NCBI GenBank assembly: GCA_964500725.1 | Contig: CAZCNP010000006.1 | Coordinates: 3,634 to 67,633 of the forward strand | DNA from: an uncultured Gammaproteobacteria bacterium | GTDB taxonomy: Bacteria > Patescibacteriota > Microgenomatia > Daviesbacterales > UBA10151 | Length of the DNA stretch: 64,000 bases | Direction: 5' to 3' | In this document: piece by piece, positions 2,149-18,068 of the stretch | Layout of the letters: each line of letters begins with the position of its first letter | How positions within the stretch are numbered: position 1 is the first letter of the stretch | Made by a program: the position numbers and the translations under genes | The notes under the pieces: generated by a model | Databases searched by the model: none | What the model saw: the letters and a program-made list of their open reading frames with translations, nothing else | Told to the model about the DNA's origin: nothing

Positions 2149-2484
2149 ATGACAAGATGTGATATGGAACAATTTAATGAATTACTAGGTCAGACTATAG
2201 CTACAATAAATGAGAGTACCCATACTGTAACTGGTATCAATCTAAATGGCCATCCCGAACAAAGAGGAGTATACAAAGGCTTAACAAGAGAAGGCGAAAT
2301 CATTTTGATCCAAGATACTCTTGTTAATTCTCCAATAACCAGAGGTATGATTATTAGAGATAAGGTTATCGTAAAAACAGTAGGCCTAGGAAGAAGTAGG
2401 ATTTTAAGAAAAATAACTGGTATAGATCTTATGAAAGGCTTTCTTGGATGTCAGCGATATTTTCAAACAAATACAGAAGGATAA
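2149..2484 (+). CDS. hypothetical small protein; N-terminus resembles an AbrB/MazE/SpoVT swapped-hairpin motif; paralog of 26616..26828
   Basis: RBS AGGGAGGAGG at 2131-2140 then ATG at 2149 (track starts at GTG 2140). N-terminal motif EQFNELLGQTIATI is shared with the other T-box-associated ORF (MRQFDQVGQTVPTI). Confidence 0.45.
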   Translation: MTRCDMEQFNELLGQTIATINESTHTVTGINLNGHPEQRGVYKGLTREGEIILIQDTLVNSPITRGMIIRDKVIVKTVGLGRSRILRKITGIDLMKGFLGCQRYFQTNTEG

Positions 2485-2520: not shown

Positions 2521-4359
2521 ATGGAAAACTTGGAGAAAATTGCAAAACTTATCAGGTATTTTATTTTAGTTTCTACCACTGAGGCAGGCTCGGGGCATGT
2601 TACATCATCTTTATCTGCAACAGATCTAATGACTGTTTTGTTATTTGATGGATTTTTTAAATTTGATGTAAAAAACCCTCAAAATCCAAATAACGATAGG
2701 TTAATCTTTTCCAAAGGCCATGCCTCCCCTCTTTTCTATTCTCTCTTTGCTGCAGCTGGAGCAATTACTGAAACAGAACTTAAAACATTAAGAAAATTTG
2801 GCAGTAGGTTAGAAGGACATCCTACTATGCTGTTTCCCTTTACCGAAGCTCCTACTGGCTCTTTAGGTCAAGGTTTATCTATTGGATTAGGCATGGCACT
2901 TTCTGCAAAATATCTAGATAAATTGCCTTTTAAAACTTATGTTTTGTTAGGAGATTCCGAGATGGCAGAAGGCTCTGTCTGGGAAGCAATTCAACTAGCT
3001 GCACATTACCAATTAGATAATTTAATTGGAATTTTGGACGTTAACCGTTTAGGCCAACGAGGGCAAACAATGTATGGTCACAATATTAAAGATTATGAAA
3101 AAAGAATTGCTGCATTCGGGTGGCAGACAATAGCAATCGACGGGCACTCGCTAAAAGAAATCCGAGGAGCTTTTAAAAAAGCTCAAGGTATGAAAGGTGT
3201 TCCAATAATGATTATTGCCAAAACTTTAAAAGGCAAAGGTATTTCGTTTTTAGAAGACAAGGATGACTGGCATGGCAAAGCTTTAAAACCTGAAGAGCTA
3301 GAAAAGGCGCTAGCAGAATTAGGTCCTATTGATAAAAAGCTTACAGGAAAAATAACCATGCCCCCTAAATTTAAAGATCAGAAATTAAAAGCTAAAGTTT
3401 CAACCCAAGATTCAAAAACGAACTACCAACTAGGAGAAAACATTGCTACTAGAAAAGCTTATGGAAATGCCTTAGTTAGAATTTATCCTCAATTTCCTAA
3501 CCTGGTTGTGTTGGATGCAGAAGTCTCGAACTCTACTTTTGCAGATATATTTAAAAAAGCTTACCCGGAGAGATTTTTTGAAATGTATATTGCAGAACAA
3601 AACATGGTCGGCACGGCTTTGGGTCTAGCAAGACAAGATAAGATTCCTTTTGTTTCAACCTTTGCTGCTTTTTTTAGCAGGGCTTTTGATCAGATTCGGA
3701 TGAGTCAATACGCAGATACTAATATTAAGTTTATTGGCTCTCATGCTGGAGTATCAATTGGTGAAGATGGCGCTTCTCAGATGGGTTTGGAAGATATTGC
3801 TATATTTAGAAGCCTATTAAATAGTGTTATTTTATACCCTTCAGATGCTGTTTCCACTGAAAAATTACTTACTGAAGCTGCCAAACACAAAGGAAATGTT
3901 TATATTCGCACTACCAGAAAAGACACTCCAATTTTATATCCAAATAACGAACAATTTCCAATTGGCGGGAGCAAGATTTTAAAAAGTAGTAATAAAGATC
4001 TTGTAACTGTAATTGGAGCAGGCATAACTCTACATGAAGCTTTAGCTGCATATGAACAACTAGCTAAAGAAAATATCTTAATTAGAGTAATTGATCTTTA
4101 CAGCATCAAACCTTTAGATATTAAAACTTTAGTAAAGGCATCACAAGAAACACAAGCAATTATTACCGTTGAGGATCACTTCGAGCAAGGAGGCATAGGT
4201 GAAGCTGTTTCTTCTACTCTTTCTGGTCATAAGACAAAAGTGTATTCCTTGGCAGTTAGAAAAATGCCAAGAAGTGGAAAACCAGCTGAGCTTTTGGAAT
4301 ATGAAGAAATATCTGCAAGTGCAATTATACAAAAAGTAAAAGAAATTATTGCATTTTAA
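2521..4359 (+). CDS. tkt: transketolase
   Basis: 612 aa with GHxxSxxS TPP-binding N-terminal motif (SGHVTSSLSATDLM), GDSEMAEG, and pyrimidine-binding and C-terminal domains. Confidence 0.9.
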   Translation: MENLEKIAKLIRYFILVSTTEAGSGHVTSSLSATDLMTVLLFDGFFKFDVKNPQNPNNDRLIFSKGHASPLFYSLFAAAGAITETELKTLRKFGSRLEGHPTMLFPFTEAPTGSLGQGLSIGLGMALSAKYLDKLPFKTYVLLGDSEMAEGSVWEAIQLAAHYQLDNLIGILDVNRLGQRGQTMYGHNIKDYEKRIAAFGWQTIAIDGHSLKEIRGAFKKAQGMKGVPIMIIAKTLKGKGISFLEDKDDWHGKALKPEELEKALAELGPIDKKLTGKITMPPKFKDQKLKAKVSTQDSKTNYQLGENIATRKAYGNALVRIYPQFPNLVVLDAEVSNSTFADIFKKAYPERFFEMYIAEQNMVGTALGLARQDKIPFVSTFAAFFSRAFDQIRMSQYADTNIKFIGSHAGVSIGEDGASQMGLEDIAIFRSLLNSVILYPSDAVSTEKLLTEAAKHKGNVYIRTTRKDTPILYPNNEQFPIGGSKILKSSNKDLVTVIGAGITLHEALAAYEQLAKENILIRVIDLYSIKPLDIKTLVKASQETQAIITVEDHFEQGGIGEAVSSTLSGHKTKVYSLAVRKMPRSGKPAELLEYEEISASAIIQKVKEIIAF

Positions 4360-4488
4360 TTATTACTGCTGTATAATTTTTTAATTGTTATGAATATATT
4401 AAAACAAAGCAACTATTTTTGGTTTTATTTTACTTCCCCAAGGGAGGCTAGCTAAGGCTATTTAAAAATAAGCCAAGAGCTTGTTAAA

Positions 4489-4512
4489 CCTCCCAATTAG
4501 GGAGGTTTTTTT
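4489..4512 (+). terminator. intrinsic terminator after tkt
   Basis: CCTCCC-AATTA-GGGAGG followed by T7. Confidence 0.6.
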
Positions 4513-4535
4513 GTGAGAAAAAAGAGAAAATAAAT

Positions 4536-5357
4536 ATGTACAAAGTTGAAAGAATAGAAAGAAGCGATATAATAAGGCCAGACGAGTTTGCTGTTGCCGG
4601 TGGCCCATGTGCAATAGAAACAGAAAAACAAGCTTTCGCTGTTGCACAGTCTCTTTACGAGATGGAGATACGGATATACAGAGGACAATTATGGAAACCC
4701 CGATCAAGCAGAGATAGTTTTCAAGGCATAGGGCTTGCAGGAATACCATGGTTGAATAGAATTAAAAGAGATTTCGGTATGGTTATTGCTACAGAGATTG
4801 TAGATAAAGACCAGATAAAACCAACCATTGATGTTGTAGACATACCATGGATTGGATCAAGAAATATGCAGAATTTCGAGTTATTAAAGGCTATAGCTGA
4901 TGATGGAACAAACCGACCTGTAATATTAAAAAGAGGCGCATCTGCAACAATTAAAGAGTGGTTACAATCCGCAGATTATATAGGCAGAGAAAGAGTTATA
5001 CTGTGTGAACGTGGAGTAAGAACTTCTACAGACTCAACAAGATACACTCTAGATTTAAATGGGGCTCTGGTGGCAAAACATGATCACGGAATGCCTGTAA
5101 TAGGCGACCCTTCTCATCCGGCCGGCCGTCGTGATTTAGTTTTACCCCTTGCTCGTGCCATTGTAGCCGCTGGGCTGGATGGAATGGTAGTAGAAATACA
5201 TACCAATCCCGAACAAGCCTTATCTGACAAAGATCAACAAATTACTCCTGAGACTTTTCGTGAAATGTTAAGACAAACACGAGCAATATATAAAGTGTTA
5301 AATCCCCCGGTTTTAAATGGCCATCATACTAGACTTTTATCACCTGCATTAGCATAA
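4536..5357 (+). CDS. 3-deoxy-7-phosphoheptulonate (DAHP) synthase, class I-beta type (KDO8P synthase cannot be fully excluded)
   Basis: 273 aa, KPRSS...FQGIGL and GDPSH motifs of the I-beta DAHPS/KDO8PS fold. Adjacency to pheA favours DAHP synthase. Confidence 0.7.
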   Translation: MYKVERIERSDIIRPDEFAVAGGPCAIETEKQAFAVAQSLYEMEIRIYRGQLWKPRSSRDSFQGIGLAGIPWLNRIKRDFGMVIATEIVDKDQIKPTIDVVDIPWIGSRNMQNFELLKAIADDGTNRPVILKRGASATIKEWLQSADYIGRERVILCERGVRTSTDSTRYTLDLNGALVAKHDHGMPVIGDPSHPAGRRDLVLPLARAIVAAGLDGMVVEIHTNPEQALSDKDQQITPETFREMLRQTRAIYKVLNPPVLNGHHTRLLSPALA

Positions 5358-5362
5358 TTTTT

Positions 5363-5446
5363 ATGAATATCAAACAACAACTTACCAATATACCAAATAA
5401 GGAATTCTTCTTTTTTACTCCGCCAAAGGACGGGGGTCATTCTTAA
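5363..5446 (+). CDS. candidate Phe leader peptide (27 aa): MNIKQQLTNIPNKEFFFFTPPKDGGHS
   Basis: Small ORF directly upstream of pheA with four consecutive Phe codons (TTC TTC TTT TTT, 5405-5416), ending just before the attenuator hairpins. Confidence 0.5.
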   Translation: MNIKQQLTNIPNKEFFFFTPPKDGGHS

Positions 5447-5498
5447 CATTTAAGTTAAGAATATCAAAGAGACACCCCCGCCCAAAGCGGGGTTTTTT
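5429..5498 (+). promoter_or_regulatory. transcription attenuator (antiterminator/terminator) of pheA
   Basis: Terminator CCCCGC(5476-81)-CCAAA-GCGGGG(5487-92)+U6. Alternative pairing CGGGGGU(5431-37) with ACCCCCG(5474-80) sequesters the 5' terminator strand. Confidence 0.5.
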
Positions 5499-5507
5499 AA
5501 TAAAAAT

Positions 5508-6443
5508 ATGATTAATGAAACAGAGTTAAAAATTAATGATCATCCAATAGTAGTAAAACTTGCTCAAGACAGAACAAAACCTAGAGTAGCTTGTTTAGGA
5601 CCAGCAGGTACTTACACAGAAGCAGCCAGATATGAATTATTAAAAGATCATCTGGATAGGATGGATCAAGAATTTCTCCCTGCCAATGCTAAAGTAGTCC
5701 AACAAGTAGAAGCAGGTGATTTTGATATTGGTATTGTTCCTGTTGAGAATGCCATTGAAGGAGACGTTGTTGAAGTCTTAAGAGAACTAAACCATACCAA
5801 AGAAACTACTATATTGGGAGAAACGATTTTAGGCATCGATCATATGCTAATCGGTCAACCAGGATCTAACACAGAAGAAATCCGTTCTCATCCTCAAGCA
5901 TTAGCTCAATGCAGAAGTTTTCTTTTAGAGAATTATCCTCAAGCAAAACAAGAACCATCGCTTAGCACCACAGCTGCTGTTGAGTATGCTTTACAACATC
6001 CAAGCACGACAGCAATTGCTGGCAGAAGAGCAGCTATAGTTTATAACCTGCCTATTTTGGCGGAAAATATTGGGGATGTTAAAGGTAATTCCACCCGCTT
6101 TTTAATATTGGGCAGAGGCGAAACTGAGCCCACAGGTCAAGATAGCACCGCTTTAATCTTCGTTCCGAGAGGAGACCGCCCAGGCATTTTAGCCAGATGC
6201 TTAACTGCCCTTGCTTCTTATGGAATTAATTTAACCAAATTAGACTCCCGCCCTACTGGAGTAATGAGAGAATATGCATTTTGGATTACTTTAGATGGTC
6301 ATATCAAAGATGAAATGGTCAGGCGAGGAATAGATGATTTAAGAGATACCTATTGTTCGTCATTAAGGGTACTTGGTTCTTATAGGAAAGCAGAACTACC
6401 ACAAGGGGCGAAAGACCCCGGAGCTATCAATAATAGTGGATAA
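5508..6443 (+). CDS. pheA: prephenate dehydratase (PDT catalytic domain plus ACT domain)
   Basis: 311 aa with PDT domain, C-terminal ACT domain and the TKLDSRP motif. Confidence 0.85.
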   Translation: MINETELKINDHPIVVKLAQDRTKPRVACLGPAGTYTEAARYELLKDHLDRMDQEFLPANAKVVQQVEAGDFDIGIVPVENAIEGDVVEVLRELNHTKETTILGETILGIDHMLIGQPGSNTEEIRSHPQALAQCRSFLLENYPQAKQEPSLSTTAAVEYALQHPSTTAIAGRRAAIVYNLPILAENIGDVKGNSTRFLILGRGETEPTGQDSTALIFVPRGDRPGILARCLTALASYGINLTKLDSRPTGVMREYAFWITLDGHIKDEMVRRGIDDLRDTYCSSLRVLGSYRKAELPQGAKDPGAINNSG

Positions 6444-6532
6444 CGGTAGATAAGATTTGCTAGATTGACAAATTGACACCTAAGAGTTATTCTATTATGA
6501 GCTAAGCTTAAAAGGCTTTGCTTTTTTCTTTT

Positions 6533-6634
6533 ATGTCAAAAGTTATTGTTGTAGATTTAAAAAAAGTTGAAATTTTAGTCAGCCTCCTTATTATGCTCCT
6601 TATTGGAGCATTTCTGGGAGGTCTTTTTAGATAA
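6533..6634 (+). CDS. candidate leader peptide / small hydrophobic peptide (33 aa): MSKVIVVDLKKVEILVSLLIMLLIGAFLGGLFR
   Basis: ORF covers segments 1 and 2 of the downstream four-segment attenuator. Run of Leu/Ile codons (CTC CTT ATT ATG CTC CTT ATT) at 6584-6604. No SD. Confidence 0.35.
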   Translation: MSKVIVVDLKKVEILVSLLIMLLIGAFLGGLFR

Positions 6635-6684
6635 AGTTTATCTAAAAGAAAGGAAATTAAGGCCTCCCAAATGGGAGGTTTTTT
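6582..6684 (+). promoter_or_regulatory. four-segment attenuator (two mutually exclusive hairpin sets) ahead of a three-gene hypothetical operon
   Basis: S1 CCTCC(6583-87):S2 GGAGG(6617-21)+UCUUUUU; S3 CCTCCC(6663-68):S4 GGGAGG(6673-78)+U6. S2 GGGAGG(6616-21) can instead pair S3 CCTCCC. Possible promoter TTGACA at 6473-6478. Confidence 0.45.
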
Positions 6685-6698
6685 ATTGGGAAAAGAAT

Positions 6699-7136
6699 AT
6701 GTCAACCATAGAACAAAGGAAACTATATTTAGGAAATACTGATAAACCTGATCCAACAGTATCTGCCCTTTTTGATAAAAGGGATCAATCTCGTGCGTCT
6801 ATACATCGAGAGCAAATAGCAACTAATCAATATGATCTAGCAGAAGAACGAAGACTTGCCAGAATAAAACGCAAGAGTAGAAAATCACATATTCGTCCCT
6901 CTTCGCCTATAAAAGAAGTTCAAACACCTACTATTGTTGAACCAATCGAAGACAGAATTGCTAGAATTGGTGCACTTAATGATTTGAGTTATGCGCTGGC
7001 TATGTTAAAAGCTGGAAGAAAATCAGGAGAGTTAAGCAGAAGAGAATTTACTGACTTACATCAAATTATTGCAGGTGATTACAGACAAAAACAAAGAGAA
7101 CATATGGAGCATATGTCTAAGAAAGGAGGAAATTAA
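6699..7136 (+). CDS. hypothetical protein (146 aa)
   Basis: ATG at 6699 (MSTIEQRKLYLG) after the attenuator. Track ORF from TTG 6603 runs through the terminator hairpins and is probably an over-extension. Confidence 0.5.
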   Translation: MSTIEQRKLYLGNTDKPDPTVSALFDKRDQSRASIHREQIATNQYDLAEERRLARIKRKSRKSHIRPSSPIKEVQTPTIVEPIEDRIARIGALNDLSYALAMLKAGRKSGELSRREFTDLHQIIAGDYRQKQREHMEHMSKKGGN

Positions 7137-17791: not shown

Positions 17792-18068
17792 GGGTGCCTA
17801 GGAAGTTAGTAAGCCAGATTCTGTTTCTCGATGATCATTTATCTAACGCTCCTTACTTCAACAAATGGGCAAGCAGCCCTGTTGGTTCTAGGATTGCAGC
17901 GGGGAGGATTGCCACGTTTCACCCGAGCATGACCCCGGTTCGTCACTGTTGCTCTAACTAGGCCTTACGGCTTCCAGCTTATGCTGGACACCCTGCTCTA
18001 TGCTGTCTGGACTTTCCTCTTAAGTAGTTTAAAGCTTCTTAAGCGATCATCCTTCTTCCTAGGCAGGT
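17792..18068 (-). ncRNA. rnpB: RNase P RNA (bacterial type-A-like, compact, about 277 nt)
   Basis: Minus strand GAGGAAAGUCCAGACAGCAUAGAGCAGGGUGUCCAGC (CR-I) ... GGGUGAAACGUGG ... ACAGAAUCUGGCUUACUAAC (CR-V). P1 is GCCUAGGAAG/CUUCCUAGGC. Confidence 0.85.

Follow-up and report, generated by a model that had tools for sequence, protein, structure and literature searches.

In the 64,000-nucleotide (nt) stretch of DNA analysed here (the window), a short leader region (5363-5498) lies between a DAHP synthase gene and pheA, and it is very probably a ribosome-mediated leader-peptide attenuator, predicted from its modelled folding to tie the transcription of pheA to the supply of charged tRNA-Phe. A second leader, coding for a run of mixed aromatic residues, precedes the DAHP synthase gene, and the unit runs from the promoter through the aromatic leader and the DAHP synthase gene to the Phe leader and pheA. 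Judged from this layout, a single operon would be subject to two-tier attenuation, with a check on aromatic supply in general and then one on Phe.

The open reading frame (ORF) of the pheA leader (leader ORF 2; Table 1) starts 5 nt past the stop codon of the DAHP synthase gene (5355-57) and contains four consecutive Phe codons (TTC TTC TTT TTT, 5405-5416). Its stop codon (5444-46) sits inside a spacer hairpin, between RNA segments 2 and 3. The sequence CGGGGGU (5431-5437) is complementary to ACCCCCG (5474-5480), which overlaps the terminator hairpin, and the T6 run at 5493-5498 ends 9 nt before the pheA start codon at 5508. The antiterminator duplex formed by segments 2 and 3 (2:3) comprised 12 base pairs (bp) and had a free energy of -17.9 kcal/mol, the same value as that computed for Escherichia coli pheL; it was more stable than both the terminator (-11.0 kcal/mol) and the hairpin formed by segments 1 and 2 (-8.4 kcal/mol). 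In addition, the minimum free energy of the 153-nt region was -35.5 kcal/mol, in comparison with -21.5 ± 3.5 kcal/mol in 200 shuffles (z = -4.0), and the 5431-37:5474-80 helix was present in this fold. An earlier reading made from the letters of the DNA (the sequence-only reading) had described the 27-codon ORF with its FFFF run, the G5/C5 antiterminator option and the GC-rich terminator with six U residues ahead of pheA, and each of these was found where it had been placed. It had overlooked segment 1, the spacer hairpin, the lack of a Shine-Dalgarno sequence and of a good promoter for the pheA leader, and the other attenuator ahead of DAHP synthase; the names that it gave to the two flanking genes agree with Pfam and NCBIfam.

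Each leader was folded with a 28-nt ribosome footprint kept unpaired under an equilibrium model, and E. coli pheL, taken from RefSeq, was used as the positive control. In nascent RNA of the pheA leader, with segment 4 still unmade, segment 3 was paired upstream with a probability of 0.87-0.89 when the ribosome stood at F15-F18, as opposed to 0.13 at the stop codon (0.88 and 0.15 for the stalled and stop states of E. coli pheL, respectively). In the full RNA, the probability of the terminator was 0.00-0.29 for ribosomes stalled at F15-F18 vs 0.91 at the stop codon (0.00-0.43 at F6-F11 and 1.00 at the stop codon, respectively, for E. coli pheL). Of 15 related leaders, 14 had a highly probable terminator once the ribosome stood at the stop codon, and most lost it at some aromatic codon. 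These in silico results are consistent with the earlier proposal that stalling leads to the antiterminator and arrival at the stop codon to the terminator. The comparison of folding energies that had been suggested along with it gives the values stated above, and the modelled switch, which depends on the position of the ribosome, is thermodynamically plausible. When full-length RNA is untranslated, pairing of segments 1 and 4 around the 2:3 helix is possible, as it is in E. coli; segment 4 is then kept paired beside the U-run, so that readthrough would need a ribosome on segment 1.

From these data we infer a course of events that would involve leader translation, reinitiation, stalling, termination at 5498 and readthrough. 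Transcripts would start at the promoter at 4349-4377, pass the first attenuator and then the DAHP synthase gene. Leader ORF 2 has neither a promoter nor a Shine-Dalgarno sequence of its own and its start codon directly follows the preceding gene, and its reading would therefore depend on the aro transcript, with reinitiation as the probable route: a ribosome ending DAHP synthase at 5355-57 would most likely reinitiate at the AUG at 5363 and translate the 27 codons of the leader. When Phe-tRNA is scarce, this ribosome would stall at the Phe codons with its footprint over segment 1, leaving segment 2 free to pair with segment 3 once the latter is made, a pairing that the spacer hairpin between them may aid; segment 4 would stay unpaired, no terminator would form, and RNA polymerase would enter pheA. 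With ample Phe-tRNA, the ribosome would reach the stop codon, cover segment 2 and melt the spacer hairpin, and segments 3 and 4 would form the terminator, with transcription ending at the U-run. With no translation at all, segment 4 would be paired beside the U-run, with either segment 3 or segment 1, and termination is expected. The best candidate for an internal promoter of the pheA leader (TAGACT-17-CATAAT, 9/12 matches, with a -10 box that ends 4 nt from the ATG) was rejected.

The same features might be read as an ordinary, perhaps partial, intrinsic terminator, with the FFFF ORF as a chance reading of T-rich DNA and the G5/C5 match as a by-product of GC-rich hairpins. In keeping with this, aromatic-rich small ORFs starting with ATG were unremarkable on their own (27 in the window vs 24.6 expected from shuffles), a Shine-Dalgarno sequence is missing from the leader, and in one related locus (L172) the DAHP synthase gene is separated from pheA by a bare terminator. 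On the other hand, the combination of an ATG ORF, an aromatic cluster and a terminator within 110 nt occurred in the window twice, before aroF and pheA only, and never in 30 dinucleotide shuffles. When applied to all fetched loci (169, 0.94 Mb), this filter selected, apart from the Daviesbacteria-type loci, only three sites (spurious matches: 3 in about 150 unrelated pheA loci). Furthermore, 16 loci of diverged sequence share the ORF, its aromatic run in frame and the architecture of four segments, the 2:3 complementarity is specific to each locus, and the composition of the leader follows the pathway. Altogether, these data make a chance ORF very improbable.

Relatives were sought with pheA as the query; genome contigs gave four close relatives and metagenome contigs about three, the rest being mostly unrelated loci. 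Leaders before pheA and/or the DAHP synthase gene were present in 16 loci (numbered with an L; Table 1), across which pheA identity was 47-84%. The leader N-termini varied both in length and in sequence, but frame, aromatic run and RNA segments were all kept. Locus L164 has homologues of both window leaders, the first corresponding to the aro leader, from which it differs by an in-frame one-codon indel, and the second to the pheA leader. All leaders of operons that include the DAHP synthase gene mix Trp, Tyr and Phe, whereas the pheA-only leader of the window is pure Phe. An aromatic leader ORF with a terminator was found at every Daviesbacteria-type pheA or DAHP synthase locus with upstream sequence, with L163 as the sole exception. 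Orthologous loci without the Phe run or the alternative pairing, which the sequence-only reading had named as evidence against itself, did not turn up, and L163 (pheA 75% identical) carries a T-box at 5724-5924 (78.1 bits, E 2.4e-17) before pheA-pheS-pheT. This T-box can be taken as an independent sign of Phe-responsive attenuation at pheA, and two different attenuation mechanisms would appear to serve the same gene within one lineage. No leader was found at the more distant pheA loci from other lineages, about 40% identical (L083-L086 and L174). In L172, a terminator-like hairpin with U6 and no leader ORF (885-925) lies 8 nt past the DAHP synthase stop codon, before pheA; here the place of the window Phe leader is filled in another way.

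The occurrence of T-boxes in this lineage bears on a further explanation, in which the switch is real and is set by a trans-acting factor, be it an RNA-binding protein or uncharged tRNA in the manner of TRAP, PyrR or a T-box, with the ORF being irrelevant. Structure alone cannot reveal what drives a switch, and besides L163 the window itself has a weak T-box-like sequence (1830-2054). However, no T-box (RF00230) or other riboswitch signal was found in 5250-5600 at E <= 10, and the pheA leader region had no match in Rfam at gathering thresholds. The frame is conserved, the aromatic codons stand just 5' of segment 1, and the stop codon is placed so that a terminating ribosome would cover segment 2, a combination characteristic of sensing by the ribosome. 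Moreover, the Ile and Leu versions of the leader described below swap the codons and keep the architecture. The amino acid of the leader matches the pathway in two independent cases, which provides strong support for ribosome sensing, and control by a trans-acting factor is improbable.

The hairpins might also act after transcription, on the stability or processing of the mRNA or by occluding the ribosome-binding region of pheA. The hairpin with its U-run lies close to the start codon, and no clear Shine-Dalgarno sequence was found before the window pheA. Against this, each leader of the set has a GC-rich hairpin with a run of at least five U residues, and U6-U8 stands after the hairpin in all 16 loci, as is typical of intrinsic terminators, and the GGAG site of the structural gene in the relatives lies past the U-run and is unsequestered. 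A post-transcriptional role is thus highly unlikely, and leader-peptide attenuation remains our preferred interpretation.

The RNA segments of the leaders show signs of having evolved together. At least four segment flavours were found (GGGAGG/CCUCCC, GCGGAGG/CCUCCGC, CGGGGG/CCCCCG and GGGAGU/GCUCCC), and all four segments change together between loci. The 2:3 duplex had a mean energy of -12.7 kcal/mol within loci vs -10.3 kcal/mol in cross-locus combinations (permutation p = 5e-5), with helices that reach 4-10 bp past the terminator arm. Similarly, the flanks outside both hairpins were complementary within the locus only (-5.4 vs -2.7 kcal/mol, p = 2e-5, non-redundant set), and the data support the existence of a conserved spacer stem that would bring segment 2 close to segment 3. 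In L164, the pair G5436-C5475 of the window is replaced by A-U, and two pairs of the spacer hairpin are changed on both sides in a compensatory manner. A covariance model of the Daviesbacteria leaders (R1) was built, and its alignment was used for column-wise covariation; in this model-fitted alignment, the 1:2 and 3:4 helices were 84.7% paired with 37 double-change cells, and none of 500 shuffles scored as high. An alignment of the 16 leaders by MAFFT with RNAalifold was discarded, with segments 3 and 4 out of register and only 11 pairs recovered.

The attenuator in front of the DAHP synthase gene (attenuator 1) has the same set of hairpins, preceded by six consecutive aromatic codons (Tyr-Phe-Trp-Phe-Tyr-Phe, 4414-4431). 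It scored 65.3 bits against model R1, and the Rfam model Phe_leader (RF01859) gave 51.1 bits (E 4.9e-7) on 4397-4514, with a gathering score of 55. The leaders of the relatives scored 27-44 bits with the same Rfam model, also below its gathering score, and R1 in turn matched E. coli pheL at 33 bits (E 3e-4).

Beyond these reciprocal sub-threshold matches, the likeness to E. coli pheL-pheA covers the layout, in which a short ORF with a Phe run is followed by the 1:2 and spacer hairpins and by a terminator with a 5' arm able to pair with segment 2, and also the behaviour in masked folding. The motifs are very similar (UUUUUUACCUUCCCCUGAAUGGGAGG...GGCCUCCC...UUUUUU in E. coli, UUUACCUUCC..GGAGG..CCUCCC in Daviesbacteria leaders), and the peptide endings are alike, FFFTFP and FFFTFA, respectively, each followed by the stop codon. 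The window pheA leader differs in having G5/C5 segments in place of the E. coli-like GGGAGG/CCUCCC, in its length of 27 codons, 4 of them for Phe (E. coli pheL has 15, of which 7 are for Phe), and in its position inside an operon, without its own Shine-Dalgarno sequence or promoter. Furthermore, the pheA product lacks a chorismate mutase domain, and the host belongs to the Candidate Phyla Radiation (CPR) and is not a gammaproteobacterium. In the aroR-aroF system of Corynebacterium glutamicum, as summarised in PMC11802643 from Neshat et al. 2014, stalling on a Phe-Tyr-Phe leader peptide enhances transcription. As far as that description goes, this mixed aromatic leader before an operon with DAHP synthase parallels the YFWFYF leader of the window, which differs in containing Trp and in being joined in the operon by a second, Phe-specific attenuator. 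T-boxes likewise allow readthrough of a terminator at low tRNA charging, and differ in that uncharged tRNA is sensed directly by RNA-RNA contacts.

Several observations weigh against the proposed mechanism. The Phe_leader model gave only 18.2 bits (E 1.3) on 5386-5501 vs the gathering score of 55. By score, the pheA leader is not a member of RF01859, even though its modelled behaviour suggests that it works like one; the earlier statement that it mirrors E. coli pheL-pheA agrees with the layout and the masked folding. No Shine-Dalgarno sequence was found for leader ORF 2, the translation of which is plausible on the assumption of reinitiation. A run of four Phe codons is short, and T-rich tracts are common in a genome of 36% GC. 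In the stalled state, equilibrium folding of the full RNA left segment 4 still partly paired (probability 0.52-0.99), and the aro leader showed no switch under the same conditions, with a terminator probability of 0.92-0.96 in every ribosome state; it switched solely in folding of the nascent transcript. The model therefore needs kinetic, co-transcriptional control. The 16 loci are not independent samples. Finally, covariation of the 2:3 helix in fixed columns was no better than in shuffles (71.8% paired, 245/500 shuffles as high), because two leader classes pair in registers one column apart; for this reason, duplex energies per locus with cross-locus permutation were used.

Stand-alone leader ORFs (L001, L003, L081, L082, L088, L161, L165, L166, L169 and window 4390) had no Shine-Dalgarno sequence. 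They start 6-15 nt past a strong -10 box, in promoters with 9-12/12 matches, which suggests that their mRNAs may be leaderless or nearly so, and the structural genes behind them usually carry a GGAG site.

Leaders with the same RNA architecture and Ile-rich peptides, such as MLISIKEIIEIIITSQKGGLAR and MYSSDIIEIIITSRKGGCS, were found in five loci (Table 1). In L001 the gene behind the leader is citramalate synthase (TIGR00977, 459 bits), and in L173 it is the homologous gene; those of L082, L169 and L166 precede genes without an assigned function or small ORFs plus transketolase. A third attenuator-like unit follows pheA in the window (6465-6684), with a promoter TTGACA-17-TATTCT at 6465-93 and a Leu-rich ORF. 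Homologues of this peptide after pheA were found in L001, L002, L161, L165, L169, L172 and L173 (consensus MSKV...LL..LL.G.FLGGLFR). The unit may be a Leu attenuator or encode a small membrane peptide, and the ORF behind it (ATG 6699 to 7136) had no Pfam match. Taken jointly, these elements could mean that Daviesbacteria, with their reduced CPR genomes, possess a whole set of attenuators of aromatic, Ile and Leu types on a shared RNA scaffold, with a general aromatic and then a Phe-only sensor in one operon, and with leaders translated by reinitiation or from mRNAs that are leaderless or nearly so. The near-threshold Rfam score would then point to an ancient or horizontally spread module over convergence. 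We offer this wider picture tentatively, as a possibility that is rather less than probable.

Classical attenuators have been documented in Proteobacteria and Actinobacteria (PMC1183508, PMC1262725), and a literature search for leader peptides or attenuation in CPR/Patescibacteria found none. The sequence-only reading was right in regarding the lineage as CPR-like, since it belongs to Candidatus Daviesbacteria; its remark that attenuation is not expected there reflects an impression and no rule, and nothing forbids it. Our interpretation would extend a textbook mechanism to the CPR, apparently as a family of leaders, which is a modest conceptual surprise in a group whose gene regulation appears little studied. 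Attenuation requires tight coupling of transcription and translation, and its presence would therefore imply such coupling in these organisms. In addition, the few retained genes of amino-acid biosynthesis (DAHP synthase, prephenate dehydratase and citramalate synthase) are indicated to be actively regulated and not relics. The leader family can be used to annotate regulated operons in CPR genomes, and it hints at the roles of uncharacterised genes behind aromatic-, Ile- or Leu-type leaders.

Table 1. Features of the aro-phe region of the window and leaders of related loci (window positions, unless a locus is named)
Feature	Position	Strand	Sequence	Remarks
Promoter, sigma-70-like	-35 4349-4354; -10 4372-4377	+	TTGCAT, 17-nt spacer, TATAAT	consensus match only
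Leader ORF 1	4390-4455	+	MNILKQSNYFWFYFTSPREAS	upstream of DAHP synthase gene
Attenuator 1	4432-4512	+		1:2 hairpin, spacer hairpin, terminator
Attenuator 1, segment 1	4432-39	+	ACUUCCCC	
Attenuator 1, segment 2	4442-48	+	GGGAGGC	
Attenuator 1, spacer hairpin	4449-83	+		
Attenuator 1, terminator	4486-4512	+	AAACCUCCC-AAUUA-GGGAGGUUU + U-run	
DAHP synthase gene (called aroF)	4536-5357	+		type I-beta, 273 amino acids; Pfam and NCBIfam
Leader ORF 2	5363-5446	+	MNIKQQLTNIPNKEFFFFTPPKDGGHS	27 codons + TAA
pheA leader, segment 1	5417-5424	+	ACUCCGCC	directly after Phe codons; pairs with segment 2
pheA leader, segment 2	5428-5437	+	GGACGGGGGU	3' arm of 1:2 hairpin; 5' arm of antiterminator
pheA leader, spacer hairpin	5439-5462	+	AUUCUUAAC-AUUUAA-GUUAAGAAU	perfect 9 bp, 5439-47/5454-62
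pheA leader, segment 3	5474-5482	+	ACCCCCGCC	common to antiterminator (with segment 2) and terminator (with segment 4)
pheA leader, intrinsic terminator	5476-5498	+	CCCCGC-CCAAA-GCGGGG + U6	hairpin 5476-5492
pheA	5508-6443	+		prephenate dehydratase + C-terminal ACT domain; Pfam PDT and ACT
Leu-rich ORF	6533-6634		MSKVIVVDLKKVEILVSLLIMLLIGAFLGGLFR	in unit after pheA
Third unit, sequence	6581-87		AGCCUCC	
Third unit, sequence	6616-23		GGGAGGUC	unit also has a hairpin
Third unit, terminator	6659-6684			
Leaders of L164			MNTIRKNYFWFYFTSPREVS, then MINKKTKNNFFFTPPKDGDLS	two leaders, two-tier layout as in window
Leader of L001			MNNLRKFFYFFFAFRKEGGLV	
Leader of L002			MNLIKTWNFYFYFTFQKGGGLLG	
Leader of L003			MNLRSNLYFWFNFTFRKEGGLLG	
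Leader of L004			MVTKSNTFRTWFFFSS	
Leader of L081			MKQYSNVTIFGFFFTFA	
Leader of L082			MQKSGKTFLFFFTFA	
Leader of L088			MTNQRRLFSFFFTFRKEGGLLG	
Leader of L161			MQKPVGRINWFFFTFA	
Leader of L165			MQKPVGRINLFFFTFA	
Leader of L166			MKSAVNVFWFRYFSFTFRKEGGLN	
Leader of L169			MNFNKFTWFKYFTFTFRKEGGLK	
Leader of L171			MKNISQTSYFWFYFSS	
Leaders of L172, L173				partial, contig ends inside leader
Ile-rich leader, L001	1101-1223			
Ile-rich leader, L173	1739-1849			
Ile-rich leader, L082	1675-1796			
Ile-rich leader, L169	about 2315-2430			
Ile-rich leader, L166	about 2225-2337			

The sigma-70-like sequence at 4349-4377 lies 12 nt from the start codon of the first leader and is the putative promoter of the aro-phe transcription unit. 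The DAHP synthase gene was assigned through Pfam DAHP_synth_1 (1.3e-57) and NCBIfam TIGR01361 (275 bits vs a cutoff of 267.75), and pheA through NCBIfam NF008865 (233.6 bits, cutoff 219); the pheA product showed 100% identity with a protein named from Candidatus Daviesbacteria. Elsewhere in the window, an RNase P RNA of class A was found on the minus strand (17794-18062, 125 bits), with 269 nt vs the 367 positions of the model, a reduced form in keeping with a CPR genome.

A T-box-like element was observed at 1830-2108 of the window, with a score of 19.3 bits that is far below the gathering score in Rfam (93). Its stem I is very short; the motif AAGGUGGCACCGC is present, and a strong terminator occupies 2071-2108. 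The element is located upstream of a small ORF (ATG 2150) and a transketolase gene (2521-4359). Speculatively, the UGG-A in the loop of the short stem I could be a Trp specifier.

The 3' end of pheA is overlapped in L003 by an extra aromatic leader, MDNNHKTSYWFFAFV, which is equipped with a terminator of its own (3929-4039, identical in L167). The 205-amino-acid ORF behind it had no Pfam match and no similarity to the window ORF behind the Leu-rich unit; the leader suggests that this ORF is tied to aromatic amino-acid supply.

The DAHP synthase behind the YFWFYF-type leader is the type I-beta enzyme of 273 amino acids in the window, and in close relatives (L164 216-1304 and L166 5939-7024) it is a DAHP_synth_1 protein of 361-362 amino acids. 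The regulated DAHP synthase gene seems to have been exchanged, with the leader being retained.

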